Positions 4,448-27,500 of a stretch of 29,091 nucleotides of DNA are shown piece by piece. This DNA comes from an uncultured bacterium (GTDB taxonomy: Bacteria; SAR324; NAC60-12): NCBI GenBank assembly GCA_965662845.1, contig CBFIJD010000037.1:1-29091 (forward strand), written 5' to 3'. The translations under genes were made by a program, and so were the position numbers. The notes beneath the pieces are model-generated. The model did not search any database. It saw only the letters and a list, made by a program, of their open reading frames with translations, and was not told where the DNA came from. Position 1 is the first letter of the stretch; every line of letters begins with the position of its first letter.

Positions 4448-5371
4448 TCAACGTCGTGGCGAAAGGGAATCATAGAGGGCGAGATAACTTTGATAGCGCA
4501 CGTCTTGGATCCGCTGCGCTTGCACGGCAGCTTTCACAGCGCAGTCGGGCTCATGTCGGTGTGTGCAGTTGGGAAACCGACAGCCCACGCGGTCTACAAA
4601 CTCCACGAAGTATTGATCTAACTCCTCGGCCTGCACGCCCCACGGACGCAGCTCACGAACTCCTGGCGTATCCACCAGATATCCGCCTTCGGGCAAAGGA
4701 AACATCTCCGCCAACGTCGTCGTGTGTCGCCCTTTTCCAATTTTTTGATTGACCGCCCCCACCCGAATCTCCCAGTCCGGAAACAGCGCTTTCACCAGAG
4801 AAGATTTCCCCACCCCCGAGTGCCCTGCCAGCACCGAAGTCTGGAGGTGAAGTTGCTCGCGGACCGCGTCGAGCAGCGTCCCCTGCAACGCGCTCACCGT
4901 GAGCACCACGTATCCCAAATGACGATACAGCTCCGCGATGTTCTGCGTCTGCGCTTCTGTCGCAAGATCAATCTTGTTCAAGACAATCACAGGCTCTAGC
5001 CCCCCTGCCAACCCCGCCACGATCAGGCGATCCACCACACCATGCCGAAATGTGGGCTGACGCACCGCAGCCACAATCAGCAGCTGATTGGCGTTGGCCA
5101 CCAAGACCTGGCGAATCTCTCGCTCTGGAATGTTGCGAGCCAGCTCCGTCGTGCGCGGCTCAATCCGATAGATCAAACCCGCGTCTTCCGCCGCTTCTGG
5201 ATCCGCTTCTACACGATCGCCAACCGCAATCTTTTCGTCGTAGCGGCTCTCTTGAAACAAGTTGCCTTTCACACGACACAGGCGGGGCTCTCCGTCTGCA
5301 AAAGAGACGTAATAAAAACTCTTTGTACGTTTGCGTACGATCCCAATCTGCTTCATTTGGGCCGTGACCAT
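4448..5371 (-). CDS. rsgA: Ribosome small-subunit-dependent GTPase A (RsgA/YjeQ)
   Basis: Circularly permuted GTPase motifs LNKIDL then GHSGVGKSSL then DTPG. C-terminal zinc-finger cysteines CRFPNCTHRHEPDCAV are characteristic of RsgA. Confidence 0.85.
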   Translation of the reverse strand: MVTAQMKQIGIVRKRTKSFYYVSFADGEPRLCRVKGNLFQESRYDEKIAVGDRVEADPEAAEDAGLIYRIEPRTTELARNIPEREIRQVLVANANQLLIVAAVRQPTFRHGVVDRLIVAGLAGGLEPVIVLNKIDLATEAQTQNIAELYRHLGYVVLTVSALQGTLLDAVREQLHLQTSVLAGHSGVGKSSLVKALFPDWEIRVGAVNQKIGKGRHTTTLAEMFPLPEGGYLVDTPGVRELRPWGVQAEELDQYFVEFVDRVGCRFPNCTHRHEPDCAVKAAVQAQRIQDVRYQSYLALYDSLSPRR

Positions 5372-5425
5372 CAGAAAGTAGTGAAGCGAGCCGCGTTGCG
5401 TTCAGACAGAGCCCAGGCGCTGGGC

Positions 5426-8550: not shown

Positions 8551-10311
8551 TTACATCCTCTCGGGCGGTTCGATGCCTAGCAATTGCAGTCCTCTCCGGA
8601 GCGTCTCTCCGACACAGTGAAAGAGAGACAAGCGCGCGTGTTGCAGCGCGGTAGAGTCTGCATATTTCACAGAGCACGCCCCATAACAACGGCTGAAATC
8701 TCGGGCGAGCTCGTAAAGAAATCGGGCGAGCAAAGAGGGGCGATATTGTTCGCCGGCCTGCGCCACGGTCGCGTTGAAGTCAAACACGCGCCGAATCAGA
8801 GCGGTCTCTGTCGGGTGTCGCAGCAGCGCATAGTCTGGAGACACATCGGAGAGATCTACATCAAAACTGCGCGCGATGCTGCGAATCCGCACATAGGCAT
8901 AGACGAGGTAGACGCCTGTGTCTCCTTCTGCGACCAACCAATCTTGCAGCGAGAACGTAATCTGCTTGTTCGGATCTTGATTGAGCATCCCATACTTAAT
9001 CGCCGCGACAGCGACTTTGCGGGTGGTATCGGAGATTTCGGCTTCAGTCCAGTCTCCTTGATGACTCTCCAAATATGTGCTGCGAATGAAGTCGCTGACT
9101 TTTTGCTGCAACTCGGAGAACAAAATCACGTTCCCAGCTCGGGAGCTCATTTTTCCGTCTGGGAGCACAACCAACGCGTACGGCAAATGGAAGCAATGTG
9201 CCGCCTGCTCATATCCCATGTGCTGGAGGGTCGCGAAGACTTGCTGGAAGTGAAGTGTCTGCTCGGCCCCGACCACGTAGATCGAGCGTTCAATGCTAAA
9301 CTCTTCAAACTTGCGCTGTGCGAGGGCGAGGTCTTTCGTCGCATAAAGCGTGTTTCCGTCGGACTTCAGCAATAAAAAAAAGCCCAAGTTCTGCTCTTGA
9401 AGATCGATTCCAATCGCTCCTTCTGAGCGTTGAAATGTGCCGTCTTCGGCTCCTTGCAAGACGAACTGCTTCCCGGCTTCATCGACCTCCGACTCAAAAA
9501 ACACATGATCGAAGCGCGTTCCCAGCCAGTCATAAATCGCGTTGAAGTCTGCGAGGGACCACTGTCGTGTCTCATCCCAAATGCGCAGCATGTCGGGTTC
9601 TTTGGCTTCGAGCTGCGCCAAAATCTGGCTGATGCGGGCGTGGGCTGAGGCTTCTTCTTCCCCTTCTAAGTTGGCTAAGTGCAAGGTGGCCGCGGTATAC
9701 AATTCACCCAGCCACTCCCCCCGAAAGGTCTCTGGCGGTTCAGCTTGGTTGTGATCAAGATAAAACCAAAGGCATTTGGCAATGTGTGTCCCGACGTCGC
9801 CAATGTAATTCGCGGCGATGACCTCATGACCATTGTAACGATACAACTGGACCAGACTATCTCCCAGCGCCACGTTCCGACAATGCCCCACGTGGAAGCC
9901 TTTGTGCGTGTTCGGCTGCGAGAACTCGATCATCACCCGCGAGCGAGACTCCGCTGCGTTTCTTTGGAAGTACGTCCCATCTAAGACGGTCGGGAGCGTT
10001 TGTGTCGCCATAAACGCATAGTTGACGCGGACATTCAAATAAGGGCCCGCCGCAGCGCAATCGGTGAATTGGCCGGTGGCGATGAGTCTGGGCTGAAGCG
10101 GGGCTTGCAGCGACTGCGCAATGCGTGGGGGAGCTTGACGGAGCTGTTTGGCGAGAGGAAAGCAAGGAAAGGCATAATCACCCAGCTCAGGGGTAGGAGG
10201 GGTCTCAATTGCCGACAGAAATGGGTTCATGTCCCATTCGTGTTCACCGTAGAGTTCTTGCAAAACAGAGGTGAGTTCGCTGGCGAAGGTCGTGACAAAT
10301 ATATTTTTCAT
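8551..10311 (-). CDS. argS: Arginine--tRNA ligase
   Basis: 586 aa. Class I signature HVGH (FHVGHCRNVALGD), KMSSR (KMSKS-type) motif, and an N-terminal anticodon-binding-like region GDYAFPCFPLAK. Confidence 0.93.
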   Translation of the reverse strand: MKNIFVTTFASELTSVLQELYGEHEWDMNPFLSAIETPPTPELGDYAFPCFPLAKQLRQAPPRIAQSLQAPLQPRLIATGQFTDCAAAGPYLNVRVNYAFMATQTLPTVLDGTYFQRNAAESRSRVMIEFSQPNTHKGFHVGHCRNVALGDSLVQLYRYNGHEVIAANYIGDVGTHIAKCLWFYLDHNQAEPPETFRGEWLGELYTAATLHLANLEGEEEASAHARISQILAQLEAKEPDMLRIWDETRQWSLADFNAIYDWLGTRFDHVFFESEVDEAGKQFVLQGAEDGTFQRSEGAIGIDLQEQNLGFFLLLKSDGNTLYATKDLALAQRKFEEFSIERSIYVVGAEQTLHFQQVFATLQHMGYEQAAHCFHLPYALVVLPDGKMSSRAGNVILFSELQQKVSDFIRSTYLESHQGDWTEAEISDTTRKVAVAAIKYGMLNQDPNKQITFSLQDWLVAEGDTGVYLVYAYVRIRSIARSFDVDLSDVSPDYALLRHPTETALIRRVFDFNATVAQAGEQYRPSLLARFLYELARDFSRCYGACSVKYADSTALQHARLSLFHCVGETLRRGLQLLGIEPPERM

Positions 10312-12793: not shown

Positions 12794-13795
12794 TCAGGAC
12801 GGAAGCTGACGCTCTTGATAGAGCTTGCGTGTGATCTGCTGCAGGTGGCGCGCGCTGTCCGGAATCGGCTGATCCCAGAGCTTAATGATGCGCTTCGCGA
12901 GACGAATGATGTCTTGGGCCGCATAAGATTTGGGGTTGTGCTTCATCAACGCCGTCTTCTTGCGTACGGCGTCCACAACCGCTCGATCTTCTGGCACAAA
13001 CCCGATGTAGTCGACTTCAAGCTCCAACATGAAGCGCAGCGTCCGATCCAACACAGTGAGGATTTCTAAGTCATCTGGGCTCATGCCAACATTGAACACC
13101 AGCCGAGGACGGAACTGACGCCACACCGCGCGCAATTTTGCCGCGACTTGGGGGTCGAGTTCATTCACAAACTCTTGCACACCGGCAACATTGTAATCAC
13201 TGATCTCTACAGGCGTGATGTAAAGTTCGTGCAGACGCTTGCGGAGTTCTCGATTGACCGGCAGCGCGTGCTCCATCACGCGAAACGCGAGATTTTTCAA
13301 AAACGCGATCATGTTCGTGACCGCCGTATATTCCGGCGTCGTGACCAACAGCCCCTTTGGCGAGATGCGGAAAAAATCTAGCGTTAAAAAAGAACTCCCG
13401 GCTCCGAGATCCAGCAGAATGTAGTCCGCCTGCAGCTTCCGGATTTCATGCATCAAGCGCATCTGTTGGGCAGGCGTGATGTTCGCCATAAACGGATTGC
13501 CCGCGTCGCCAGCGATCAGGCTCAGGTTGGCATACGGGGTCTGCGTTTGGCATTCAGCTAGACTTTTGGGGCCGCCTCGCAGAAAGTCAGCCACTCCCTT
13601 GGTCGTGCTCAGCAACCCGAGATAGGAGTGCAAGTTCGCTGCGCCAAGGTCTAAATCAATGGCAATGGTCCGATATCCCAAGCGGGCCAGAACAAGCGCT
13701 AAGTTCGCTGAGATCAGGCTTTTGCCGACGCCGCCCTTCCCCCCAGCAATTGGAATGATTGTTGCGGATGACTTGGTGTTGGTTGCAGAGTTCAT
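12794..13795 (-). CDS. MinD/ParA-family deviant Walker A ATPase (paralog 1)
   Basis: Deviant Walker A AGGKGGVGKS with signature lysine, then DLDLGAANL and hydrophobic-DLGAG motifs (Walker A' and B). The start is uncertain. The ORF-track start at 13837 is a TTG. The first ATG (13795, MNSATNTKSSATIIPIAGGKGG) is used here. Confidence 0.8.
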   Translation of the reverse strand: MNSATNTKSSATIIPIAGGKGGVGKSLISANLALVLARLGYRTIAIDLDLGAANLHSYLGLLSTTKGVADFLRGGPKSLAECQTQTPYANLSLIAGDAGNPFMANITPAQQMRLMHEIRKLQADYILLDLGAGSSFLTLDFFRISPKGLLVTTPEYTAVTNMIAFLKNLAFRVMEHALPVNRELRKRLHELYITPVEISDYNVAGVQEFVNELDPQVAAKLRAVWRQFRPRLVFNVGMSPDDLEILTVLDRTLRFMLELEVDYIGFVPEDRAVVDAVRKKTALMKHNPKSYAAQDIIRLAKRIIKLWDQPIPDSARHLQQITRKLYQERQLPS

Positions 13796-13879
13796 GGACT
13801 TCGCTACTGAAAGGTTGGGGAACTGGAGCGCGCACAAGGTGGAGCGGGCGCAGAAGCTTTTTCTTCAAAAGGACGCAGT

Positions 13880-14824
13880 ATGACGACGATCATTCCCGTG
13901 GCAAGCGGCAAAGGAGGGGTGGGCAAGAGCCTCATCACCGCCAATCTTTCGATGGCCCTAGCCGAACTGGGCTATCAGGTGGTCGCCGCAGATCTCGATT
14001 TCGGAGGCGCCAATCTACATTCGTATTTGGGACTCAAAAACAACAACCCGGGCATCGGCGAGTTTCTGATGGGGCGCGTCCCGCGCTTGGATGACCTGCT
14101 CGTGAATACGAGTCACCAGCATGTGCACTTCTTACCGGGAGAAGGGACCACTCCCTTCCTCGCCAACATGAACGTCGCGCAGCGCATCCGACTGGCGCAA
14201 AACCTCCGCAAACTTCCCGCCGACTTCCTGTTGCTCGATCTCAGTGGGGGGAGCGCCAACCAAACCTTGGACTTTTTTGCCATGTCGCCCCGTAGTTTGC
14301 TGGTGTCGCGGGCAGACACACCATCTTTGATGAATCTGCTCGGATTTTTGAAGCAGCTCGCGTTTCGTCGCATTGAGCACTTCTTGCCGCGCAATCTGGA
14401 GCTGCAAAATGCTGTAAAGCAGTTGCTGTTCCAACCGATTAACGTCAAGCCCGCAGTGACTGTACAAAGAATTTACCAAACGATTGGAGAGTATGATCCA
14501 AACGTCGCGCGACGCGTGGCCGACCGCTGGACGCAGCTGAAACCCCGTGTGCTGTGCAACCAAGTTGGGCGCCCCGAAGACATGAACATCTGGAAACAAG
14601 TCCAAACGCTGGGACAAGAGCGCTTGCAGCTGGATCTTCAGTGCTGGGCAGAATTTGGTTTTGATGAAGATGTGAACGAAGCCTTGCGCGATCAAATCCC
14701 CCTATTTCAGTCCACTTATGGGGACGCTTTTATCACGCAGATGCTGGAGCTGGCTGATCGGATCGCATCCGAGTGGACGCTGCCTTCGCCCAAACAGCTC
14801 GCGAACGCTTCTCTTACAAGATAG
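13880..14824 (+). CDS. MinD/ParA-family deviant Walker A ATPase (paralog 2)
   Basis: ASGKGGVGKS deviant Walker A. ~60-75% local identity to the divergently encoded paralog (IIPxAxGKGGVGKSLIxANL...LGY...DLD.GGANLHSYLGL...LLLDLxxGS...TLDFF). AAGGA SD 8 nt upstream. It ends 184 nt before gvpA. Confidence 0.85.
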   Translation: MTTIIPVASGKGGVGKSLITANLSMALAELGYQVVAADLDFGGANLHSYLGLKNNNPGIGEFLMGRVPRLDDLLVNTSHQHVHFLPGEGTTPFLANMNVAQRIRLAQNLRKLPADFLLLDLSGGSANQTLDFFAMSPRSLLVSRADTPSLMNLLGFLKQLAFRRIEHFLPRNLELQNAVKQLLFQPINVKPAVTVQRIYQTIGEYDPNVARRVADRWTQLKPRVLCNQVGRPEDMNIWKQVQTLGQERLQLDLQCWAEFGFDEDVNEALRDQIPLFQSTYGDAFITQMLELADRIASEWTLPSPKQLANASLTR

Positions 14825-15008
14825 CCGGTCATCTCCAAATTCTTGGTGTGTAAACAGAAGGTGAAACGAACGGCACGCTCAGGTACTCTTTGTGCACATC
14901 CTCGTCGTGGAAGTCTGTCAGGTTGTGCAGATGTTTTCTGATAAAGGGCTGTCACTGAGCTTCCACTCACTCTCTTCTAATCCTTCAATAGTCGTCCAGG
15001 AGTAAGAC

Positions 15009-15218
15009 ATGGCTACCGTAGCTAACACCACCAATTCCTCAAGCCTTGCAGAAGTAGTTGACCGCGTGCTGGACAAAGGCATCGTGATTGATGCGTTTGC
15101 GAAAGTATCCCTCGTGGGGATTGAACTGCTCTCCATCGAAGCTCGCGTTGTTGTAGCTTCTGTTGAAACCTACCTAAAGTACGCTGAAGCCATCGGTCTG
15201 ACCCAGACTGCTGCCTGA
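15009..15218 (+). CDS. gvpA: Gas vesicle structural protein GvpA
   Basis: 69 aa; [56 protein letters not shown] is the hallmark GvpA sequence, closest to cyanobacterial GvpA. AGGAG SD 8 nt upstream. Confidence 0.97.
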
Positions 15219-15224
15219 TGATTC

Positions 15225-15249
15225 AGTCTCCGTTCTTGCAACGGAGACT
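15225..15249 (+). terminator. Perfect 10-bp stem / 5-nt loop hairpin between gvpA and the gvpC-like gene; candidate attenuator/partial terminator
   Basis: AGTCTCCGTT-cttgc-AACGGAGACT lies 7 nt after the gvpA stop, followed by a C/T-rich tract. High gvpA-to-downstream transcript ratios enforced by such hairpins are known for cyanobacterial gvp operons. Confidence 0.45.
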
Positions 15250-15279
15250 CGCCCCCTCCTTCTTTCCACCTGAGGTCTT

Positions 15280-16284
15280 ATGCAAGCAAGCGTCGAACAG
15301 CTCCGCTCCCAAGTTCAACAACTCCTCGACAACACCCGCAATGAGCGCCAAGCCAGTCGCGAAGCCATCGTCAACGAATTGAACACTTTCCGCTCAGAGC
15401 TCCAGTCTGGAGTCATCGAGCTGCGCCAGCAGATGCAACAAGACTTGCAACAAAGGCAGCAAGACTTTCAACAAAGCTCCCAAACCGCCCGCGAGGCACG
15501 CCACGCCTTCTTGCAAAGTCTCAAAGACTCGACCGAAGCGTTCCGCCAAGCCGCCCGCGATCAAATCATGTCACAAGGCCAAACTGCCCGTGAGACACGC
15601 CACGCTTACCTCGAACAGCTGCGCCAAGACGTCCACCAACTGCAACAAAACCTGCGCGATCAACTGCAAGCGGCCAGTCAAAACTTGAGCGAGGAAGCCG
15701 AAAACCAACGCACCGAAAGACGCGAATACATTGAGAGCCTGCGCGATCAGATCACCGAAGCCTTGAGCCGCGTCCAAGCCGACCTGCAGCAAATGCAGGC
15801 ACAGTTGCAAGCCGACGGCGACGCAGCGCGCTCTACACGCGCTCAGTTTGTCTCCGACCTGCAAGCCCAAGTGCAGGACTTCCGCACACGCACCCGACAA
15901 GAACTCGCAGAGACCGCGCGGGCTGGACGCGAGAGCCGTCGAGCTTTTTTAGAAGCGCTCCGCTCGGGCAAGAGCCCCACAGGCGCCCCTGTCGCAGAAG
16001 CGGCCGCGCCGACTCCGACTCCCACTTTGGTCAGCGAAGAGCCGCCTGCAGCACCCGCTTCCGAAGAACCCGCAGCCTCGGCAGAAGCCCCTGTTGCAGC
16101 GCCGCCTGCGGCCCCTGCGACAGAAGCCTCGCCCGCTGAGACCCGTGAAGCGGCCGCGCTGCGCCGACGTCGCATGCTCGCCGCTCAACGCGCCCGCACC
16201 ACCGAAGGCCAAACGCCTCGCAAAACGCTGAAAGTGGCCTCCGAAAGCCCCACCGAGAAACTGGACTCAAACGACCAGTTCTAA
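15280..16284 (+). CDS. gvpC: GvpC-like repeat protein (paralog 1) with Ala/Pro/Glu-rich C-terminal tail
   Basis: Position immediately after gvpA. Six repeats of motif R..R..(F/Y)(L/V/I)..L with spacings 47-33-40-40-33 aa (33-aa units with heptad insertions), as in GvpC. Glutamine-rich helical composition. The C-terminal ~100 aa are low-complexity A/P/E. Confidence 0.6.
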   Translation: MQASVEQLRSQVQQLLDNTRNERQASREAIVNELNTFRSELQSGVIELRQQMQQDLQQRQQDFQQSSQTAREARHAFLQSLKDSTEAFRQAARDQIMSQGQTARETRHAYLEQLRQDVHQLQQNLRDQLQAASQNLSEEAENQRTERREYIESLRDQITEALSRVQADLQQMQAQLQADGDAARSTRAQFVSDLQAQVQDFRTRTRQELAETARAGRESRRAFLEALRSGKSPTGAPVAEAAAPTPTPTLVSEEPPAAPASEEPAASAEAPVAAPPAAPATEASPAETREAAALRRRRMLAAQRARTTEGQTPRKTLKVASESPTEKLDSNDQF

Positions 16285-16295
16285 ATTAGGAGCGG

Positions 16296-17198
16296 ATGAC
16301 CGAAAACCTACACCTCGAAACGGGCGAAAGCTTCGTTAATAGCGCATCTGTCGAAGACTTAACGGAGCGCGCGCTGGCCTACCTCCAAGTCGGCTACCCT
16401 GTGCATTTCGCAGGCCCCGCTGGAACCGGCAAAACCACCCTCGCCTTCCACCTCGCCGCTCAGCTGGGGCGCCCCATCACCTTGATTCATGGCAACGACG
16501 AGTTCGGGACCTCCGATCTTGTAGGTGACAACGTCGGCTTCAAAAGCAACCGAATTGTCGACAATTACGTCCACTCCGTTGTGCGCACCCAAGAAGAAGT
16601 GCAGGAACTCTGGGTAGACGACCGCTTGACGCAAGCTTGCGTCCGTGGGGAAACGCTGATTTACGACGAGTTCAACCGCTCACGCCCCGAGGCCAATAAC
16701 GTGTTCTTGAGCGTGCTCGGAGAAGGTGTCTTGAACCTGCCCAAGCGGCGCGACACAGAGAAGAGCAGCTACGTGGTGGTTCACCCTGAATTTCACGTCA
16801 TTTTCACATCAAACCCTGAAGAATACGCCGGAACACACAAGACGCAGGATGCTCTCGGAGACCGCATGATCACCATCGAGTTGCAGCACCCTGATCGACA
16901 GACCGAGGTGGGCATTGTCGTCGCCAAGTCTGGCCTCAAAGAAGCAGACTCTGCAAAAATTGTGGATCTGGTCCGCGAAGTGCGTGAGTTGAGCCCGAAC
17001 AAATTGCGCCCAACCATGCGCTCTTCCATCGCCATTGCCAAAGTGATCCAGCATCAAAAACGTCGTGTCCGCTCCAGCGACCTCTTCTTCCGCAAAGTGT
17101 GCTATGACCTCTTGCACGCCGACATTGCGAAGGTCAAACGCGGCGGATCTACCATCCCCAGTCATGAAATTGACGAAATCATCGACCGTATCTTCTGA
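16296..17198 (+). CDS. gvpN: Gas vesicle protein GvpN (AAA+ ATPase), copy 1
   Basis: Walker A GPAGTGKTTLA, Walker B LIYDEFNRS. Full-length match to GvpN/CbbQ-like AAA+ proteins. Confidence 0.92.
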   Translation: MTENLHLETGESFVNSASVEDLTERALAYLQVGYPVHFAGPAGTGKTTLAFHLAAQLGRPITLIHGNDEFGTSDLVGDNVGFKSNRIVDNYVHSVVRTQEEVQELWVDDRLTQACVRGETLIYDEFNRSRPEANNVFLSVLGEGVLNLPKRRDTEKSSYVVVHPEFHVIFTSNPEEYAGTHKTQDALGDRMITIELQHPDRQTEVGIVVAKSGLKEADSAKIVDLVREVRELSPNKLRPTMRSSIAIAKVIQHQKRRVRSSDLFFRKVCYDLLHADIAKVKRGGSTIPSHEIDEIIDRIF

Positions 17199-17284
17199 AG
17201 ATCACGTGTCCGTCCAACGAGACTGGGCTCGTTCTTCCAGCCTCTCGCACGAAGTATTCTCTCAACGCTGTCCTCAAAGGTCGC

Positions 17285-18451
17285 ATGCCAGCCAGCCTTG
17301 AACAAATTCGCGCCGAAGTGCAACAGCTCCTCGAGACGCATCGCAGCGAACGCCAAGCCACACGCGAGGAGGTCTTTGGACAACTGCAAAGCTTTCGCAA
17401 AACGCTGAAGACTAGCATCGTCCACAAGCGCAATGCGATGCAGCAAGCGCGAGAGACCAGCGCCGCAGATGCGAGAGCAGCCCGCCAGCAATTTGTGCAC
17501 AATCTGAAATCCGACGCCGAACAACGACGTCAGACCGTGCGTCAACGTCTGGGAGACCTCGGCATACAGTCCCGTCAAGCGCGCCAAGAATTTCAAGTTC
17601 ACCTCCAAAAAGAAGTCCGTAACCTGCAAGGGCAAATGCGCCACAAGCTCCAAACGAACACCCAGCATCTGGCCGAATGCGCGGAAGCCGATCGTACGGA
17701 ACGGCAACAATTTGTGCAGAACTTACGCGGCAATGTGCGAGATTTGCTTGCTTCGGTTCAAACAGAAAATCAGCAAGCCCACGCCCAACTCCAAGTTGTC
17801 AGCAGAGAGGCTCAAAATGAGCGAGCGCAGTTTGTGGCAAACTTGAGCACCAACGTCAGCGCATTCCGGCAAAAAGTGCGGCAAGAGCTGCAGGACTCGG
17901 CGAAGCGTGCTCGCAAACAACGCCAAGAGTTTCGTGAAAATTTACGCAACCCAACTCCCATCGTGGAAAATACCTCGCTTGCGCTGACGCCTTCAGAATC
18001 ACAGCTCAGCCCTACAAAGGATGACCTCCCGCTAGAAAAGCGCGAAGCCCCGCTCACAGATGCGTCGCTCCCCCCTCACGTTGTGGAAACCGCGCAACCT
18101 CCTACAATCGCGTCACCGGCCAAGCAGACTCGGAAGCAGCCAGCGACTCTGACATCTCGTGACCAAGCCGAGCTAGCGTCCAACGCAACCGCTCCAGAGG
18201 CGTCACCTCCCGCGTCCGTTGCCACAGCGTCCCCCAATCCGAAGCCTCGCAGCCCCACACCCACAACGGACGCCGTCACTCGACCCGCTCGACGGAGAGC
18301 TGCGGCAGGCAAGACCCCAAAGACCGCCTCGCAGCGTTCCGGCGCAGCGTCCTCCACCGAAGAGCCAGAGGCGCCGCTGTCGTCCATGACACCTCCAACT
18401 CGTCAGCTTCGTCAACAGCGCACAAGCCCTGACTCTCATGACTTTTTCTAA
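17285..18451 (+). CDS. gvpC: GvpC-like repeat protein (paralog 2) with Pro/Thr/Ser/Ala-rich C-terminal tail
   Basis: Same motif R..R.(Q)(F)(V)..L repeated six times with spacings 39-33-40-40-33, parallel to paralog 1. The N-terminus MPASLEQIRAEVQQLLETHRSERQATREEV parallels MQASVEQLRSQVQQLLDNTRNERQASREAI. A ~170-aa disordered tail follows. Confidence 0.6.
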   Translation: MPASLEQIRAEVQQLLETHRSERQATREEVFGQLQSFRKTLKTSIVHKRNAMQQARETSAADARAARQQFVHNLKSDAEQRRQTVRQRLGDLGIQSRQARQEFQVHLQKEVRNLQGQMRHKLQTNTQHLAECAEADRTERQQFVQNLRGNVRDLLASVQTENQQAHAQLQVVSREAQNERAQFVANLSTNVSAFRQKVRQELQDSAKRARKQRQEFRENLRNPTPIVENTSLALTPSESQLSPTKDDLPLEKREAPLTDASLPPHVVETAQPPTIASPAKQTRKQPATLTSRDQAELASNATAPEASPPASVATASPNPKPRSPTPTTDAVTRPARRRAAAGKTPKTASQRSGAASSTEEPEAPLSSMTPPTRQLRQQRTSPDSHDFF

Positions 18452-18457
18452 GACCGC

Positions 18458-19360
18458 ATGACCGAGAACTTACACATTGAGACGGGCGACAGCTTTGTTG
18501 ACAGCCCCTATGTTCAGGACATCACCGAACGCGCCTTGGTTTACCTGAAAGTCGGCTATCCTGTACATTTTGCCGGCCCGGCAGGCACCGGAAAAACAAC
18601 GCTCGCCTTCCACCTCGCCTCGCAGCTCGGGCGCCCGATTACGCTGATTCACGGAAATGATGAGTTTGGGACCTCCGATCTGGTCGGCGCCAACGTGGGC
18701 TTTAAGCGCCACCGCGTCGTCGACAATTATGTACACTCTGTAATGCGCACCCAAGAAGAAGTCCGCCAACTGTGGGTTGACGATCGTCTAACGCAGGCTT
18801 GTGTCAACGGCGAGACGCTGATTTATGATGAGTTCAATCGCTCGCGCCCAGAAGCCAACAACGTCTTCTTGAGTGTTCTGGGAGAAGGCATTTTGAATTT
18901 GCCGAAGCGGCGTGGCGAAGAGCAACAGAGTTACGTCGAGGTGCATCCAGACTTTCATGTGATTTTCACCTCGAATCCCGAAGAATACGCCGGCACTCAC
19001 AAGACGCAGGACGCGCTGAGTGACCGCATGATCATCATTGATCTGCACCACCCCGACCGCCACACCGAGGTTGGCATTGTCATCGCCAAAGCGCGCCTCC
19101 CCACAGAAGACGCAGAGAAAATCGTGAACATCGTCCGCGAGGTGCGCGAGCTGAGCCCACACAAACTCCGACCGACCATGCGCTCTTCCATCGCCATCGC
19201 CAAGGTCATCGCTCACCAAAAGCGTCAGGTCTCCTCTAAAGATCTCTTCTTCCGCAAAGTATGCTATGACATCTTGCAAGCCGACATTGCACGAGTGAAG
19301 CGCGATGGCGACCCGATTGAAAATCACGAACTCGACGAAATTATTGCACGATACTGCTAA
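18458..19360 (+). CDS. gvpN: Gas vesicle protein GvpN (AAA+ ATPase), copy 2
   Basis: ~80% aa identity to copy 1 over the full length, with identical Walker motifs. Nucleotide divergence is concentrated at third codon positions. Confidence 0.92.
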   Translation: MTENLHIETGDSFVDSPYVQDITERALVYLKVGYPVHFAGPAGTGKTTLAFHLASQLGRPITLIHGNDEFGTSDLVGANVGFKRHRVVDNYVHSVMRTQEEVRQLWVDDRLTQACVNGETLIYDEFNRSRPEANNVFLSVLGEGILNLPKRRGEEQQSYVEVHPDFHVIFTSNPEEYAGTHKTQDALSDRMIIIDLHHPDRHTEVGIVIAKARLPTEDAEKIVNIVREVRELSPHKLRPTMRSSIAIAKVIAHQKRQVSSKDLFFRKVCYDILQADIARVKRDGDPIENHELDEIIARYC

Positions 19361-19394
19361 GCTCCGTCATCACGGCAACACATAGGGAGGCATC

Positions 19395-19688
19395 ATGGCT
19401 CAACGCAAAGGAATGCGCGATATCCTGACTCACGGGCAACAACGCGGCGCCCAAACGCACAACGGCAACACCGCCTATTTGCGTCTGTATTCCTTGGAGA
19501 TGGAACGGACTCGCTTGAGTAAAGAAAAAGAAGCCTTGCTGATCCATCTGAAATCGATTGAAAAGCGCGAGTCCACCATCCTGGAAGAACAAAAGAAACT
19601 TCGTCAAAAAATCGAGCTGTGGCATGACGAAGCCGAGCAGCAATCCGCTGCCGTCGAAGCCGAGAACAGCTTTAAGATTCGATACTAA
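19395..19688 (+). CDS. Small charged coiled-coil protein, possible GvpG-like accessory gas vesicle protein
   Basis: 97 aa, in-operon position between gvpN and gvpF/L. Central charged helix LEMERTRLSKEKEALLIHLKSIEKRESTILEEQKKLRQKIE resembles GvpG-type proteins in composition. The assignment is tentative. Confidence 0.4.
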   Translation: MAQRKGMRDILTHGQQRGAQTHNGNTAYLRLYSLEMERTRLSKEKEALLIHLKSIEKRESTILEEQKKLRQKIELWHDEAEQQSAAVEAENSFKIRY

Positions 19689-19702
19689 CAACAAGGAACG
19701 TT

Positions 19703-20449
19703 GTGGCTGGAAAATATCTGTATGCCATCGTAGCAGGCAACCAAATCACTTTACCTGAGAGCGCCGGCATCGAAGACCAAGCGCTCGAAATACTCGGCAC
19801 GGAACATCTCGCCATCGTCGTCAGTGAAACCAACGCAACGCAGCTGCGCCCTCAACGCAAGCACCTCGCGCGACACCAAGAAGTGCTCGCTGGGCTCCTC
19901 AAACAGGGGGCGACGCCACTGCCGATGAAATTTGGCATGATCGCCGATTCCGCTGGGTCGGTAGAACGTCTGCTAGAAGCCAACGCAGCGACCTTGCAAA
20001 CACAGCTCGACCGCGTCGTAGGTCAAGTGGAAATGGGACTGCGCGTCGTGCTCGAAGTCCCCAATGTGTTCGAGTTCTTCGTCGGCAAATATGAGACTCT
20101 GGGGAAACTGCGCGATCAGTTCTTCAACGATCGTCAACCCAACCAAGACGAGATGATTCACCTAGGGCGCGAGTTCGAGAAAGCGCTCACCTCCGAACGA
20201 GAGCGAGCCCTCGAGCAAGTCGAGCAACGGCTCAGGCCCCACTGCACGCAAATCCAGAGCAACGACTGCCGCGACGAGCGAGAGATTGTGCATGTGGCCT
20301 GCTTGATCCCGCGCGAGGCAGAGTCCCAGTTTGAGCAATGGGTGATTGAGGCCGCCCGCCCCTTCGACCAAAACTATACCTTTGACTTCAACGGTCCGTG
20401 GTGTCCGCACAACTTTGTGCAGCTAGATCTGGAAGCTCCCACTGGATAA
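19703..20449 (+). CDS. gvpF: Gas vesicle protein GvpF/GvpL family
   Basis: N-terminal YLYAIV and overall length/pattern of the GvpF/L family. GTG start with AAGGAA SD 6 nt upstream. Confidence 0.85.
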   Translation: MAGKYLYAIVAGNQITLPESAGIEDQALEILGTEHLAIVVSETNATQLRPQRKHLARHQEVLAGLLKQGATPLPMKFGMIADSAGSVERLLEANAATLQTQLDRVVGQVEMGLRVVLEVPNVFEFFVGKYETLGKLRDQFFNDRQPNQDEMIHLGREFEKALTSERERALEQVEQRLRPHCTQIQSNDCRDEREIVHVACLIPREAESQFEQWVIEAARPFDQNYTFDFNGPWCPHNFVQLDLEAPTG

Positions 20450-20458
20450 AACACGCTG

Positions 20459-20713
20459 ATGGATGACGAAGCCCTGCTGCAAAAAATCACCCTCTGTGAA
20501 GTGCTAGACCGCGTGCTCAACAAAGGGGTCGTGCTCGCCGGAGAAGCCACGATCTCGGTGGCAAACGTCGAGCTGCTCTATCTAGACCTGCGCCTCTTGG
20601 TTTGTTCCTCCGCTACCAAACATCGAGTCAAGCATGACGATCAATCCGACGCCCATTCAAACCGAAACGCCCGAAGCGTTCCGCCAAGTGCTGCGGCCCC
20701 CCGAGTGGAATGA
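20459..20713 (+). CDS. GvpA/GvpJ-family minor gas vesicle protein (GvpM/GvpS-like)
   Basis: LCEVLDRVLNKGVVLAGEATISVANVELLYLDLRLLVCSSAT is the GvpA-fold core. Its 3' 80 nt overlap gvpK out of frame. Confidence 0.75.
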   Translation: MDDEALLQKITLCEVLDRVLNKGVVLAGEATISVANVELLYLDLRLLVCSSATKHRVKHDDQSDAHSNRNARSVPPSAAAPRVE

Positions 20714-20972
20714 GAACCTCAACCTGAACGCGAGCAACGCCCCCAATGGGCTCGCCCAGCTCGTCTTGACCTTGATTCAACTCCTGCATGACTTGCTGGA
20801 GCGACAGGCGCTGCAGCGTATGGACGCAGGCCAGCTCACCGACGCACAAATTGAAGAAGTCGGCACCACCCTGATGCGTCAAGCAGAAGAGATCGAGCGT
20901 CTCTGCGAACTGTGTGGTCTCACGCCCGCCGATCTGAATCTTGACCTTGGTCCCTTGGGATCTCTGCGCTAG
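20634..20972 (+). CDS. gvpK: Gas vesicle protein GvpK
   Basis: GLAQLVLTLIQLLHDLLERQALQRMDAGQLTDAQIEEVGTTLMRQAEEIERLCELCGL matches the conserved GvpK core. Confidence 0.85.
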   Translation: MTINPTPIQTETPEAFRQVLRPPEWNENLNLNASNAPNGLAQLVLTLIQLLHDLLERQALQRMDAGQLTDAQIEEVGTTLMRQAEEIERLCELCGLTPADLNLDLGPLGSLR

Positions 20973-20981
20973 GAGCCCTTT

Positions 20982-21281
20982 TTGTCGATTCACCACAACA
21001 CCTCCTCCACCAATCTCGCCGATCTCTTAGAACGAGTCCTCGACAAGGGAATCGTGATCAGCGGCGATATTCGGGTCAAAATTGTAGACATTGAGTTGCT
21101 GACCATTGAGCTCCGCCTGATCATTTGCTCCGTCGATAAGGCCCGTGAAATCGGCTTGGATTGGTGGAGTTTTACCGGGAAGCAGCCGTCTCCAGAGCTG
21201 CAAAGCTCGGTACAACGCCTCGAAGAGCGACTGGAACGCATGGAGCGGTTGCTCACCCAACAAGCTCAGGACGACAAATAG
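20982..21281 (+). CDS. gvpJ: Gas vesicle protein GvpJ
   Basis: [51 protein letters not shown] is the GvpJ/GvpA-family core. TTG start with perfect AGGAG SD 6 nt upstream, directly after the gvpK stop. Confidence 0.85.
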   Translation: MSIHHNTSSTNLADLLERVLDKGIVISGDIRVKIVDIELLTIELRLIICSVDKAREIGLDWWSFTGKQPSPELQSSVQRLEERLERMERLLTQQAQDDK

Positions 21282-21511
21282 TTTGGGAATGCAAGCTGAC
21301 ACGGACTGAACGCTTGCGCCGCAGTCACCCCCAGCGCACCTTTGTTGCCCCAGCCTGTGCTAGGGCGCGCCCGCTTCCACACTCGCCTGATCGCCCCTCT
21401 CCCACACAAACCACCTGCGCTCCGCCGGAAAATAAGCTATTGTCAGACGGTCTTACATTTGCAGCTTGAAAGTGTGCATTTCGTTTTTCAGACCTTTCTC
21501 CAGACAAGCTT

Positions 21512-24500
21512 ATGAATTGGCATCAACGCTGGAAACTCCTTTGGCTCGGAGTGTTGCTGGCCTCGGCGCAGGGAGCGTCTGCGGCAACGTGTGGCCTTCC
21601 TGCCGGACTCTCAGAAGATCAACAGTTTGCCTTCGCTGAGCGCATGGTCGCAGATGGCTTGCTCACAAGCGCCCGTGACTATTTGAGTTGTTACCGCGCG
21701 AGCGAACCTAACGGCCAATTCCGCTCTCAGGCCATGCAGCTGGAAGGAGAGGTTCTGATGCGCATGGGCGAGGAATATTGGTCGCAAGCGTTTGTGGTGT
21801 TTGAAGAGTGGCTGCGCGAACATCCAGAGCACCCTGCCGCGCCCTCCATTCGCCTGAAGCTGGGCAACATCCACTTCCGCTTTGGGCGAATGCAATCCAC
21901 CGAAGAAGCCCTCGAACCCATCCCAGCTTCGGCGGAAGAGTATGCGCAAGCGCGCTTTTTGATGGGGCAAGCCGTCTTCCGCCGCTCCGTCTCGTATCGC
22001 CAGAAAAACGCCCCCACGCAGGCCGATCAACTCGCCGCCGCCGCCGCCAGCTATCTGGAAGTCGCCCTGCAGGGGGAACTCAACCCCGCGCAGCAGCTTG
22101 AGGCCCACTATCAAGCGGGCTACGCGCGCTATGTGTTGCAGCAATATGAGCAGGTTCCGCCACACTGGGAGAGCTACCTTGCCCAAGCCGAGGCGAGCCC
22201 GCAGCGAGAAGAGACGCGCTATCTCTTAGCCTCGGCGCATCGCCGCTTGGAGCAGTGGCCGCAAGCCGAGCAACGCTATGGCGAGGTGGCCGTCACCACA
22301 CAAGAGATCTCGGCAACGAACCAGAATTTGGCGAAATTTTGGTGGGGCGAGGCCGCGTTTCAGCGAGGCTTGGCTGAAGTGCGCCAGAGCGAGGCGAGTG
22401 AACTCAACCCCAGCTTTGCCAAGGAGTTGACTCCACGCTACGAGAGCTATCTGGCGACTGAAGAGGCCACCTATCGCCCCCTCGCAGCCTTTCGGCTCGG
22501 CGTGCTCTATTCGGCAGCAGAGCAACCGCAGGAGGCCATCGCGGCTTATGAGCGCTACTTGGAAACCCGCGATGAAGCCTATCGCCAAGCAGCGCACTAT
22601 CAACTGGGGGTCCTGCACGCCCAGCAGAATGAACCCCGCGCCGCGATTAAGCACTTAGAGCCCCTGCAAGACGTCCCCACCTATCGTCGTGACCCCGCCT
22701 TCTGGAACTTGATGGCGCAGCAATACGCGGCCATTCCCGATGAACCCCGCTTGGAGAGCTTGCTCTTAGCGGCGTCAGAAGCGCCGGAGTTTTCGCGGCG
22801 CACACGCCTCCAGTTTTTGCTGCGGCTCACCACACGGCAGTATCAAGCGCGCCGCTGTCTGGACCTGCTAGACACGCTGGTGCGATACGACGAACCCGCC
22901 GACATTCCCGAAGCACAACAGCTCTATCAACAGCGTGGCAGCTGCTTTTATCTGGAGAAAAAGTGGGCTTTGGCCCGCAAAGATTTGCAGCGCGTTCGCC
23001 ACGTTCCAGCCTATCGCCCCACGATCTTCCGCAGTTTGGTCGCGATCAACCGTCAATTGGAAGACGGCCCAGCGTTGCAGGAGACCCTCGCTTGGGGCGC
23101 CGAACCCGAAGTCTTGCTGCGCGACGCCGATTGGCAGCTGTGGGTCGAAGAGCTGCGCAAACAAGAAGACTGGGAAGCCCTACTGACGGTCTATGCTCGT
23201 TGGGACAGCCGCGCCGATGCCACGCTGAGAGAGCGCCCCGAGCACTTGTTGCAGTGGGCCCGAGCCCATCGGCAAGTCGGACAAACCACCGAAGAAGCAC
23301 GCCTGCTAGAAGACGTCCTCTTTTTGCTGCCTGAACAACCGGACGCGCTGCGAGAACAGACCGTTGGGCGGCTGGCGACCCTCTATCAAGAGCAAGATCG
23401 GGTCGCTGACATTCCCAAACTCTACCAAATCCACCTGCTGGCACTCTTGCCGGAAGAGGCTCCCAAATATCGAGATTATGCCTTGTATCTTGGTGAGCTG
23501 TACCAGCGGCAACTCAACAACGAAGACCAAGCCCTCCCGTGGCTCGAAGAAGCGGATCGGGGAGGCCAGACGCCCACAGAAGTGCGCGCTGCGCTCTTGC
23601 GAGCCGGCATTCATCAACAACGCGGTGAGACCGACTTGGCGCTCCCGATTTGGCGACGCCTGAGCCTGCAGCAAGCCGATGCGTCAGCGCAGTTTCTGGC
23701 GACCTACCGACTGGCCACCCTGCTCGCGGAGCGCAAGCAATGGGACGAAGCGCTGCAACAGTTTGAGGAGGTCTCGCGACTGCCGGCGCCCCGCGACCAA
23801 GACCTTGCCATGCAACAGGACGCCGCAACCCGCGCCACAGAGATCCGACAGTTCGTGTTTCAACGTGACTTGAAAGATCAACTAGAGCGGAGAGATTGGC
23901 CCGCTGTCAGCACACACATCCGCACCCACTGGGAACAGGGCCTCGTCCAACTAACCCCCGCGTTACTCCAAACTTGGGTGCACGCCGAGCAGCAGCAAGC
24001 GCGTTGGCAAGGCGTCCTAACCGTCTACAACGATGTTCAGAAGAGAGAGCCCCAGCGGGCTCTGACAACCGATGACCTCATCTGGCAAGGCGAAGCCCAC
24101 GAACAGCTGAAGCAGCCGCGTGAGGCGGTCGCGTTCTATGAGCGGGCTCTGAAAGAGCTGCCGGCTGACGACGAACGCCGACCTCGCGTCTCAGCTCGTC
24201 TGGTTCGTTTATATGAGGCTAGCGAAGACCATGAGAAGCAGCTCCAGCTCTACGAGCGCCTCTATGCTGAGACGAACCGTGCCGCAGAGAAACAACAATA
24301 TGCGCTGCGCGCAGGGATTCTCAGCTTGCAGAAACTCCAAAACGAACGCCGTGGCGCCGAATGGCTCAGCAAAGTCGATCAAGGGGGAACTTCGGATGTC
24401 GAACTACAGTCCGCGCTGTTGCTAACAGAACTCGACCAAAACAACGAGAATTACGCCATCGCCTTAGAGCGTTTGCAGCAGTTCGAGCAACGCGAGGTGC

Positions 24501-27500
24501 CCGCGTCCTCCCAGTGGTCTTGGCCGCTGCAATTTCAAATTGGCGTCTTGCACCAAGCGTCTGAAAACTGGGAAGAGGCCCGCCCCTATCTCGAACGAGT
24601 GGCCGCACAGCAAGAAGACCCCGAGCTTCAAACACAAGCCGCCCAACGGCTGCAAAGCGTAGAGCAAATCATTGCGAGACAACAGCTGCGTGCGCTAACA
24701 GACCAAGAGCGCTGGAGCGAGGTTGGGCCCTTTGTGGAGGCCGAGCTGGACAAAGGGACGCTGACCTTTGACCCACCCACCACAAACGCGTGGCTGCGCG
24801 CGGAGACCCAAGCGCAAAATTGGGAGAAGGTCCTCGCGATTTACGCGCGGCTACGACAAGAGCGCCCTGCTGAAGCCGAGACTCCCGCAGCGCTGATCGC
24901 CCAAGGACAAGCCGCCGAAGGGCTGGGTGGGTGGCTGCGCGCACGCGACTATTATGAAGCCGCCCTGCAACAAACGCCCGCCTCCGAAGAAGAGCGACGC
25001 CTCACCTTGATGGAGCGACTGCGCCATGTGTTTGAGAAAGATCCCCGTGACAACAAAGCCGACTTCCCCCCCATTGTGGTGCGCGAATATGACTCGTTTC
25101 GGCAGCTAGAGAACCGACGCCAACTGGCACAGCTGCTCGTTTTTTGGGCGCGTGAGCGGAGCAATGACCCACAGCTAGAGCGCGAATGGCTGGTCAAACT
25201 GGGCAACCTCGACTCCGGCGAATCGTCCCTGCAAGCGCGGATTCAACTCGCAGAGCTACAACAGCAAGATGGGAATACGGAACAAGCCATTCAAACTTTG
25301 GAGCAGACGCTCTCTCCTGAACTCACCCCCGCCGCCCCATTTTACTTGTCGATTCATCAGCGCCTCGCGAATTGGCACCAGGCCCAAGAACAATGGATGG
25401 CCGCGCTACGACATCACCAAGCCGTGCTCAAACTCCCTGAATCGCCCGCAAATGAGACCGCCCGCCAGCAGGCAAAAGAACAAATCATCTCCATTCGCCA
25501 GTTTTTGAGCACTCAACAGCTGAACACGGCTCGCGAGCAGGAAGATTGGCCGCAAGTCAGCCAACAGATCCAGCGGGGTCTGAATGACGGCAGCTTAGCG
25601 CACAGCGAAGAGTTGTATCGTTTGTGGCTGGAAGCCGAGACCCGGCAGGAGAACTGGCCGAGAGTGGGGGCGATCTATGACCAACTGGCCGAGCGCCACC
25701 CCGAGTCCGTCACGAATCTAGCCGACTACCAGAACCGCGGCTTTGCAGCTTCCCAAGCCGGAGACCCCAGCCAAAGCGTCGCGTTCTACACCCAAGCCTA
25801 TGCAGTCGCCCAGCCTCCTCAACAGCGCGACTTCGCGCTGCAACTCGCCGAATTGCAAAAAGACCAGCCCCGAGAAGCCCTCTCTTGGCTAGAGAAAGCC
25901 TACCTCCAGAGCCCTCCCGAAGAACAAGAGGCCATCGCGTGGCAGGCACAAGCCATCGCACAATCACTCAACGACTGGCAACTCGAAGAGCCTTGGCTCA
26001 GGAAGCTCGACCAAGGTGGCAACTCAGACACCGAGCTGCAGGCGCTGTGGCGGCGTGTAGAGCGGGCCGAACAAACCCAAAACGCGGAGCAAGAGCGCGA
26101 GGCCCTACAAGCAGTCTTGCAGCGAGACCCGTCGCCACAAACGTCGTGGTTTGTGCTCGCACACTTCCGCTTGGGGAAATCGTTTCAGGAGGCTGAACGC
26201 TGGGAAGAAGCAGAATACGCCTATCTGCAAGCGGCACAGTCCGAACCACCGGCAGAATATGCAGACGTCCAAACCGCCGCTCGTCAGCAGTGGAAAGCCC
26301 TCTCGCAACGGGGACTCAACGACAAGCTAGACCGCCTGGAACAAAACGAGGATTGGGCGGGGATGTCCTACCTGATCCGCAAGGAACACCTAGCGGGCAC
26401 GCTTCAACTCGATCCACCCATCTTTGCGCTGCTGGTGCGAGCCGAAGTGGAACAGCAAAACTGGAAGGGCGTCCTCAAAGCCTATCAGCTGCTAGAGAAA
26501 GATGACCCGCCGCAGACCCAAACCGCAGACGCGCACTTGCAACGAGCCCGCGCAACGCTGCAACTGCAAGGCTGGGCACCTGCGGCCGACTGGTATCAAA
26601 AAGCTTGGCAGGCCACAGGCGCTGACGACCCCACACAGCAGCTCGCCATCGTGGATGAAGCGGGCCCCGCCTTTGAAAACGCCGAACAAGTTCCGCAGCT
26701 CGTCGCGCTCTACGAGCAGACATATCCGCACCTCCAAGATCCTGCGTTGCGACGTCGCTGCGCGCAGACCATCATCTTTTACGCTCAAGGGGACCTCAAA
26801 GATGAGGCCAAGGCGCGTCAGTGGATCGCTCAGCTCGACCAGGGTGGGAACGCAGATGAAGACCTCGCGGCCTTGTGGGCGCAAGCGCGAGAGGCCCTCC
26901 AAACCAACGAAACCGCCAAGGCTCAGGAGATCTTGCAGACCTTGCTCGCCCGCGATCCGGCTCCTGAGTCGCTGTGGTATGTACTGGCGCACTATCAACT
27001 CGGCGTGCAGGCCCAGCAAGCTCAAGAGTGGACGAATGCCCTCGGTCACTATGAATCTGCGGCACAAGCGCCCGCGCCGGAAGAGGGCCTTGAATATCAA
27101 CAACTCGCGCGACAGCAAGCCGACCAAATCAGCGATTACTTGGCGAAAAATCGTCTGCAAACCCTCATCCAAGAGCAGCGCTGGGCAGAAGTCGCTGGAG
27201 AGTTACGACCGACCCTTGAGGCGCAAGGCGAGCGCGCCGACCTACAGCAAATCTTGGTGTGGCGTCGTGCGGAGTTAGAACAACAAAACTGGGAAGGAGC
27301 CCTCGCTTCGTGGCGAGTCCAACGTCAAGTGAATGAGCGCAGCACGCTCAACGCCGAGGCCCTCTGGCAACAAGGCGCCCTGCAAGAGCGCTTAGAGCAG
27401 CCCGCGCGCGCGCTAAACTACTATCAACAGCTGTTGCAGCGCTTCCCTGAGAGCGTCGAAGGACAGCAAGCGCGAAAGCGCATCGCCGACATCTACCTGC

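Follow-up and report, generated by a model that had tools for sequence, protein, structure and literature searches.

What GvpN does during the assembly of gas vesicles is unsettled; it is needed for the growth of bicones into cylinders and is usually discussed together with the shell protein GvpA. This text concerns a gas vesicle (gvp) operon of an uncultured SAR324 bacterium, carried by contig CBFIJD010000037.1 of assembly GCA_965662845.1, whose 29,091 nucleotides (nt) form the window analysed here, and within it a pair made of a gvpC-like gene and gvpN that occurs twice in tandem. Among described systems, Serratia sp. ATCC 39006 has an operon of the order gvpA1-gvpC-gvpN-gvpV-gvpF1, in which deletion of gvpC, the gene between gvpA1 and gvpN, lowers the collapse pressure from 0.43 to 0.14 MPa and gvpN is needed for bicone-to-cylinder growth (PMC4982088). 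ATP hydrolysis by GvpN, together with its requirement at this step, has been reported in the literature (PMC4982088; 10.1101/2023.07.23.550228). In Anabaena, one 33-residue repeat of GvpC spans about four GvpA subunits along the rib, and the buckling pressure scales with how much of the shell GvpC covers (PMC10185304). In Planktothrix and Microcystis, the width and strength of the vesicles go along with GvpC variants or with the number of repeats (PMC9501494; PMC4349496 for the Planktothrix variants). Haloarchaeal GvpC contains repeats of 32-39 residues (PMC9501494) and binds GvpN via its C-terminal part (PMC9501494; PMC9372576).

Compared with Serratia, the SAR324 operon shows the same order of gvpA, scaffold gene, gvpN, small gene and gvpF, and it differs in that Serratia has one gvpC and one gvpN. 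Reading along the forward strand, gvpA (15009-15218; 69 amino acids, aa) is followed by a first gvpC-like gene, here called C1 (15280-16284; 334 aa), which starts 61 bp past the gvpA stop codon, and by gvpN1 (16296-17198; 300 aa). An 86-bp spacer (17199-17284) separates this cassette from the second, which consists of C2 (17285-18451; 388 aa), 3' of gvpN1, and gvpN2 (18458-19360; 300 aa), a paralogue of gvpN1. The order gvpA-C-gvpN-C-gvpN given in the original prediction is borne out by the coordinates of the open reading frames (ORFs) and by family matches in Pfam and NCBIfam. The duplicated unit, a C gene plus gvpN of about 2.1 kb with 2162 nt from one gvpN start to the next, was doubled in tandem long ago and in this lineage only, and its four genes are all intact. 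Two gvpC and two gvpN copies per genome are also found in the p-vac and c-vac (gvp1/gvp2) clusters of Halobacterium salinarum, which differ in expression and whose GvpC has less regular repeats (PMC9501494). There, however, the doubling involves the whole 14-gene cluster, and the two loci lie apart and have a gvpA and regulators each, whereas in the SAR324 operon only the C+N cassette is doubled, within one operon and on a single gvpA. Planktothrix multiplies gvpA and gvpC, not gvpN. A full-text literature search for precedents of a duplicated gvpN or a tandem gvpC-gvpN returned nothing beyond the Halobacterium pair of clusters and the gvpC variants of Planktothrix. The SAR324 locus is a new arrangement within a well-known system, namely a lineage-specific duplication and not a new kind of system.

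The rarity of the arrangement is also seen among loci that encode relatives of this GvpN, 21 from genomes and 27 from metagenomes. These loci typically read gvpA, an interval gene, a single gvpN and then gvpF; a second gvpN was found in none of about 47, and none of those examined has a tandem C+N cassette. Scans of genomes and metagenomes detected no close relative with a gvp cluster; the best GvpN matches were 62-65% identical. The duplicated module had originally been called unusual by comparison with typical cyanobacterial clusters; its unusual character holds against the related loci, while the cyanobacterial yardstick was misplaced, the host being SAR324-like. The arginyl-tRNA synthetase (ArgRS) encoded at 8551-10311 is closest to those of SAR324-cluster bacteria (58-62% identity for the named matches; 72% for the best match of all), indicating that the host is not a cyanobacterium.

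Both gvpN genes encode MoxR/CbbQ-class AAA+ ATPases (Pfam AAA_5) and exceed the curated cutoff of the GvpN equivalog model TIGR02640 (266.8 bits) with 334.6 bits for N1 and 336.5 bits for N2. The closest solved structures are the midasin AAA domains, NorQ and CbbQ. The two proteins are identical at 243 of 298 residues (82%) in a gap-free alignment, and the genes at 76% of nucleotides, with about 140 synonymous and about 75 non-synonymous differences, in agreement with the predicted identity of about 80% and mostly synonymous changes. The proportions of differing synonymous and non-synonymous sites (pS and pN) are 0.67 and 0.11, and the corrected synonymous divergence (dS) is 1.7 with a non-synonymous to synonymous ratio (dN/dS) of 0.07. 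Both copies are under strong purifying selection and the duplication is old, as had been proposed. The AAA+ motifs are intact and identical in N1 and N2, including Walker A (GPAGTGKT), Walker B (DEF), the sensor and the arginine residues. Differences are concentrated outside the ATPase core: of the 57 in total, 30 fall within residues 1-30 and 211-300 and only 11 within residues 31-150. N2 has changed at six positions where conservation among 118 outgroups is at least 95% (T193I, S212A, G213R, D224N, N235H and K279R), whereas departures of N1 from the consensus are mostly conservative; this is a weak hint that of the two copies N2 is the more derived. A recent conversion event between the two genes was ruled out, DNA identity being even at 69-83% across 90-nt windows with no conversion tract. 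Both copies, at 300 aa, are shorter than the median of 332 aa in the 118 relatives and appear to be without the variable N- and C-terminal extensions found there.

The C genes have diverged much further. For C1 and C2, dN is 0.60, dS about 2.0 and dN/dS about 0.3. Synonymous sites are saturated, hence the old age of the duplication, and the similarly saturated dS of the N pair and the C pair fits a single ancient duplication of the C+N unit. An assembly artefact or chimera was excluded because the same arrangement occurs in four independent assemblies from four samples, with 99.7-100% identity across the region. The source samples are JGI 3300038702 and 3300038982 and the runs ERR15116882 and ERR15116679. 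Frameshifts and stop codons are absent from all four assemblies, which shows that all four genes are maintained. The only C1 polymorphisms among the assemblies are T245A, E253K and A286T, all non-synonymous and all in the tail of the protein. The non-synonymous polymorphisms of C2, S307P and Q378P, also lie in the tail, and N2 has one non-synonymous polymorphism.

An alternative origin of the second cassette, by horizontal gain from a related but unsampled lineage and not by duplication in place, is in our view very improbable. It draws on the genomic context. In the two relatives whose ArgRS is most similar (72% and 64%), the order RlmL-Tag-MoaE-ArgRS-glyoxalase-epimerase is kept and followed by unrelated genes, and both lack, at the syntenic site, the block at 12794-27979 with its two parA/minD-like genes, the gvp operon and the gene for a tetratricopeptide repeat (TPR) protein of 2155 aa. 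Relative to these two, the gvp region is thus an island with a history of gain or loss. Nevertheless, the two gvpN copies are each other's closest relatives. Besides itself, the best match of N1 is N2 at 82%, followed by one at 62%, with nothing in between among 5.8 billion clustered proteins, and a neighbour-joining (NJ) tree with 118 relatives places N1 and N2 in an exclusive clade. The GvpN tree, a check that had been suggested at first, is in line with duplication in place. The similar dS of the two pairs points the same way. Recent transfer of the second cassette alone is unsupported by GC content or by GC content at third codon positions (GC3), the latter being uniform across the gvp cluster.

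Despite this divergence, C1 and C2 have kept one architecture. Over roughly their first 230 residues they share 36% identity by BLASTP (E 2e-45), and 39% over a 233-column alignment of the repeat domains, which comprise residues 1-233 of C1 (15280-15978) and 1-226 of C2 (17285-17962) on the forward strand and contain six repeats each. The motif R..R..[FY]...L recurs at residues 23, 71, 104, 144, 184 and 217 of C1 and at residues 23, 64, 97, 137, 177 and 210 of C2. Repeats 2-6 of either protein are thus spaced 33-40-40-33, while a single 7-residue insertion or deletion sets their first intervals apart; autocorrelation of BLOSUM scores peaks at lags of 33, 40, 73 and 113. The N-terminal helix is conserved, with 18 of the first 28 residues identical between C1 and C2. 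The claim that the C copies are more diverged than the gvpN copies and yet retain the six-repeat pattern and the N-terminal helix is thus well founded. Within both repeat domains, hydrophobicity subjected to Fourier analysis shows a single dominant and coherent period of 3.65 residues, with a power of 211 for C1 (shuffles 53 +/- 12) and 167 for C2 (shuffles 58 +/- 14), about 8-13 standard deviations above the shuffles. At this period 33 residues correspond to 9.0 turns and 40 residues to 11.0 turns, so that the hydrophobic stripe keeps the same face. A helix period near 11/3, and not 3.5, is the mark of a helix designed to lie on a surface; 3.5 is that of a coiled coil. An AlphaFold2 model of the C1 repeat domain consists of one uninterrupted helix over residues 2-228, about 34 nm long, with a mean predicted local distance difference test (pLDDT) score of 87 and a low predicted template modelling (pTM) score, as expected for a rod. 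The long modelled helix of C1 and the stripe of both proteins are what one would expect of a rod that rests on the surface of the vesicle.

Beyond the repeat domains, each protein ends in a different low-complexity tail. That of C1 (15979-16284, forward strand) is rich in A, P, E and T (25, 16, 12 and 11%) with a basic patch near its end, and that of C2 (17963-18451, forward strand) is rich in P, A, T and S (15, 15, 13 and 12%), also with a basic patch. The tails align no better than shuffled sequences, 80 of 500 shuffles reaching the observed score, in keeping with the difference between them that had been noted earlier. A terminal DSxDxF and a basic patch can be seen by eye in both; since the alignment is not above shuffles, this candidate motif was treated as anecdotal.

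Whether C1 and C2 should be called GvpC depends on the level of comparison. Neither protein matches a curated family of Pfam or NCBIfam, giving only sub-threshold hits to apolipoprotein-type helical repeats. Neither matches PF01304, the cyanobacterial GvpC family, at E <= 0.1, a model that scored 249 bits for an Anabaena-type and 161 bits for a Calothrix-type GvpC used as positive controls (reference sequences validated against Pfam). Likewise, hhalign against cyanobacterial GvpC returned 1.7% probability (E 0.03) for the C1/C2 pair and for a wider helical-repeat family alike, and two planctomycete members of that family reached only 14-23 bits against the Calothrix protein. Membership in the cyanobacterial GvpC family is consequently rejected at the sequence level. 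A search with the C1 repeat domain through a word index gave no match at E <= 1e-3 in a collection lacking exact C1 and C2, and tblastn of C1 against plasmids gave none. On the other hand, a profile built from C1 and C2 found 41 matches at E <= 1e-3 in an exhaustive search of 1.84 billion representatives, the best small-protein matches having E values of 4e-12 and 3.5e-11. Over the N-terminal 100 residues, hhalign relates the C1/C2 pair to the helical-repeat family with 78% probability (E 1.8e-5).

Members of this helical-repeat family begin with MGxLTxDMxRL, continue with repeats of about 33 residues (FRxxHxEMA...R..F...LK..V), and close with DLxGARxAWxG and a basic low-complexity tail, and a C-terminal helix-hairpin-helix domain is frequent among them. 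Genes for such proteins occupy the gvpA-gvpN interval of Chromatiaceae, Desulfomonilaceae, Planctomycetota and many metagenomic loci, as seen in those related loci whose interval was readable. C1 and C2 share with these interval proteins the gene position, the repeat motif R..F...L..V and the basic low-complexity tail, and differ in being unusually rich in glutamine and in having no C-terminal helix-hairpin-helix domain. Both end motifs of the family are absent from C1 and C2, whose N-termini read MQASVEQLRSQV and MPASLEQIRAEV, respectively; their repeat domains end in analogous helices with RRAFLEALRSG in C1 and RQEFRENLRNP in C2. The GvpC-like identity originally assigned to the two proteins stands, then, as far as position, repeat architecture and predicted amphipathic helix are concerned, and fails as far as the cyanobacterial family is meant: by sequence they are divergent members of an uncurated, non-cyanobacterial family. 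NCBI and JGI label the family 'hypothetical', and it has no Pfam or NCBIfam model. In the gvp clusters on Spartinivicinus and Methylocella plasmids, for instance, the gene in the gvpA-gvpN interval is annotated as 'hypothetical protein'. Such labels from annotation pipelines suggest that GvpC-type scaffolds are under-annotated.

A helix-hairpin-helix domain is usually tied to nucleic-acid binding. Many proteins at the gvpC position in other lineages end in an HHH_5 domain (Pfam) with the motif DDLTxIxGIGP...LNxAGIxTFxQLA. They are encoded at 4713-5867 of locus L030, 3522-4208 of L037, 4507-5814 of L040, 514-1677 of L041, 4911-5816 of L043 and 4713-5867 of L048.

The cyanobacterial GvpC of Anabaena, Calothrix and Planktothrix resembles C1 in lying directly 3' of gvpA and in forming an amphipathic helix from tandem repeats of about 33 residues, which in cyanobacteria rests on the ribs of GvpA. 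It differs in its uniform 33-mers and the lack of a long disordered tail, C1 and C2 mixing intervals of 33 and 40 in a sequence with no detectable relationship to it. Apolipoproteins are the only known or solved proteins that resemble C1 and C2, and the similarity is weak (Pfam PF01442, E 6.8e-10 and 39 bits against a cutoff of 90; PDB entries of ApoA-I and ApoE at E 0.006-0.3). ApoA-I and ApoE are classic surface-lying amphipathic helices with a periodicity of 11/22 residues. The likeness is one of physical design and not of family membership.

It could be argued that neither C1 nor C2 is a scaffold of the shell and that they serve instead as a platform for assembly, to space vesicles apart or to anchor them to some other structure of the cell, for example. 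The missing PF01304 match would agree with such a role, as would the long disordered tails that project from the helix, the HHH_5 ends of many family members at the same position, which are unexpected for a pure shell brace, and the two MinD/ParA-like ATPase genes adjoining the operon. Nevertheless, the position after gvpA, the repeats of 33 and 40 residues and the phase-locked helix match what is known of GvpC in cyanobacteria, Halobacterium and Serratia (PMC9501494; PMC4982088; PMC10185304), and we consider a non-scaffold function improbable.

Taken together, we favour, with moderate confidence, the following account: a C+N cassette was duplicated in tandem and kept, C1 and C2 are analogues of GvpC, and the two cassettes now act as cognate scaffold/ATPase pairs. 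According to this account, C1 and C2 would be single amphipathic alpha-helices of about 33-34 nm, as modelled, and functional counterparts of GvpC. As rods laid flat on the ribs of GvpA they would stiffen the shell, with the disordered tail and its basic patch turned outward. N1 and N2, as ring ATPases of the MoxR/CbbQ class of AAA+ proteins, would drive the growth of bicones into cylinders. In the most speculative step, each GvpN would favour its own C protein, and two scaffold variants would result, on one vesicle or on two vesicle kinds. Cognate pairing is proposed since C and N were copied and retained together and since haloarchaeal GvpC binds GvpN; the clustering of the N1/N2 differences outside the ATPase core and the six conserved positions changed in N2 are taken as further signs of it. 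The specialised scaffold/ATPase pairs of the original prediction appear plausible. A stronger and more general version, in which GvpC-type scaffolds and GvpN form specific cognate pairs, GvpN loads or remodels its own scaffold and is not only a chaperone of GvpA, and two mechanically different coats arise, seems unlikely to us at this stage.

Several observations weigh against this account. Binding of C1 and C2 to the vesicle is proposed from gene position, repeats and predicted helix, that is, from sequence. Rejection from the cyanobacterial GvpC family counts here as well, and the tails have no detectable common motif, hence no obvious conserved docking site for GvpN. With 82% identity and the same catalytic motifs, N1 and N2 may be interchangeable or may co-assemble, and the clustering of their differences towards the termini may reflect weaker constraint there. 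In locus L029, gvpA and a single gvpN flank a tandem pair of small gvpC-like paralogues (4909-5268 and 5486-5902); the scaffold gene has been doubled without gvpN, so a second scaffold need not bring a second ATPase. Among the tested ORFs of the cluster there is no GvpG match, and a single gvpF/L is present in 15009-21281, which bears on whether the cluster suffices for vesicle building. Finally, the tight packing of the genes and the lack of promoter or terminator signals above chance give no indication of separate regulation.

On the last point, all genes run in the same direction at distances of 7-86 bp, and counts of internal promoter or terminator signals are no higher than in shuffled sequences. 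Condition-specific use of the cassettes, one of the possibilities raised at first, finds no support in this, and co-expression of both cassettes is the more likely mode as judged from the signals. The 86-bp spacer between the cassettes shows no significant fold (z 0.2), and homology between the gvpA-C1 and N1-C2 spacers, sought as a boundary of the duplication, was not convincing. Directly 3' of the gvpA stop codon, a perfect 10-bp stem-loop lies at 15225-15249 on the forward strand, with a minimum free energy of -17.3 kcal/mol (z -2.5; 5 of 200 shuffles as good) and a C/T-rich stretch on its 3' side. It was not called by the terminator scan. This hairpin may stabilise the transcript or act as an attenuator that limits read-through, in which case gvpA transcripts would outnumber the downstream ones.

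Another possible, though doubtful, explanation is that only one vesicle type is made: N1 and N2 would join in one AAA+ ring as hetero-oligomers, and on the same vesicle C1 would form a two-component belt with C2, with neither cognate specificity nor separate vesicle populations. The four genes form a tight co-directional run without promoters or terminators above chance and are probably made together; moreover, this class of AAA+ proteins works as rings, as in NorQ and CbbQ, the nearest solved relatives, and self-interaction of GvpN has been reported (10.1101/2023.07.23.550228). The identical repeat spacing of C1 and C2 would allow both to fit the same lattice. However, mixed assembly gives no reason for the joint retention of C and N, when in L029 the C gene alone is doubled.

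Simple redundancy, with extra copies kept for dosage or diverging slowly and neutrally without specialisation, has to be weighed too, and we regard it as rather improbable. The copies do share their ATPase motifs and have diverged from the outgroups at equal rates, the distances to the 118 outgroups being nearly the same (0.389 for N1 and 0.398 for N2). Additional C protein would also provide fuller shell coverage, with which buckling pressure scales (PMC10185304). Yet redundant copies rarely last until dS is saturated at 1.7-2.0, C1 and C2 have fallen to 36-39% identity with their architecture kept at a dN/dS of about 0.3, and some family-invariant residues have been exchanged in N2.

If the stronger version of cognate pairing is true, the locus would offer the first genomic evidence of C-N specificity and natural orthogonal scaffold/ATPase modules. 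Joint copying and long retention of a scaffold gene with gvpN provide independent evolutionary evidence for a functional link between them, which fits the binding of GvpC to GvpN in Halobacterium. In addition, the position of GvpC outside cyanobacteria is taken by a widespread helical-repeat family that lacks a model. For the engineering of acoustic reporter genes, two diverged scaffold/ATPase pairs on a single GvpA may serve as a test bed for shell stiffness.

The remaining genes of the operon are more conventional. The gvpA product matches Pfam PF00741 (Gas_vesicle; E 3.3e-16) and reaches 127 bits against a cutoff of 100 in the NCBIfam GvpA model NF006874, and it is 83-89% identical to its counterparts in related loci. 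Downstream of gvpN2, again on the forward strand, lie a small conserved gene (19395-19688; 97 aa), gvpF/L (19703-20449; PF06386, E 2.7e-56), a gvpJ/M-like paralogue of gvpA (20459-20713; PF00741, E 1.2e-17), gvpK (20634-20972; PF05121, E 1.2e-30) and a gvpJ-like paralogue of gvpA (20982-21281; PF00741, E 5.8e-17). The ten ORFs scanned with Pfam and NCBIfam gave no further Gvp assignments. As listed, the gvpJ/M-like and gvpK ORFs overlap by 80 nt within 20459-20972; the Pfam match of GvpK starts at residue 29, so gvpK probably begins at a later codon, which may lie downstream of the overlap. The 97-aa ORF occupies the position of gvpV in Serratia and matches no curated family above threshold in Pfam or NCBIfam. 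Its counterparts, with 31-42% identity, lie directly 3' of gvpN in the metagenomic loci L029, L030, L033, L034, L036, L041 and L048. It also has AYLRxxxLExE and a C-terminal RY in common with 'hypothetical' ORFs behind gvpN on the Methylocella and Spartinivicinus plasmids. A second gvpF/L is usual upstream in related loci, and other gvp genes may sit elsewhere in the genome.

Some of the related loci depart from the common order in other ways. In a Chromatiaceae metagenome-assembled genome (MAG), ppb02, a second contig (L004) reads gvpA-gvpN-gvpF without an interval gene, and its GvpN is 99% identical to that of the full cluster (L003). A Lamprocystis MAG (L001, L021) likewise has a second contig with gvpN directly after gvpA and no interval gene. 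Such an extra gvpA-gvpN contig may represent either another locus or a strain variant, binned together with the main one, from which the gvpC-like gene has been lost. CxxCxGxG repeats are of the zinc-finger type of DnaJ. The gene for a small protein with these repeats separates the gvpC-like gene from gvpN in L007 (9460-9831), L026 (2383-2823), L028 (2443-2964) and L046 (3947-4288), and no gene of this type occurs in the window.

Two divergent genes of the MinD/ParA ATPase family, at 12794-13837 on the reverse strand and 13880-14824 on the forward strand, lie directly upstream of gvpA. Their products are paralogues with 39% identity, one of which is labelled FlhG by JGI. Among the other gvpN loci, none was seen to have a ParA-like neighbour. 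These ATPases might position vesicles in the cell. Directly 3' of the gvp operon, a gene at 21512-27979 on the forward strand encodes the TPR-rich protein of 2155 aa, whose N-terminus resembles a signal peptide. It contains a tandem series of six or more modules, each about 274 residues long, with D[QR]GG at residues 682, 956, 1500, 1776 and 2050 and autocorrelation peaks at 272-276 and 545-550, and shows weak TPR matches to YbgF and MamA.

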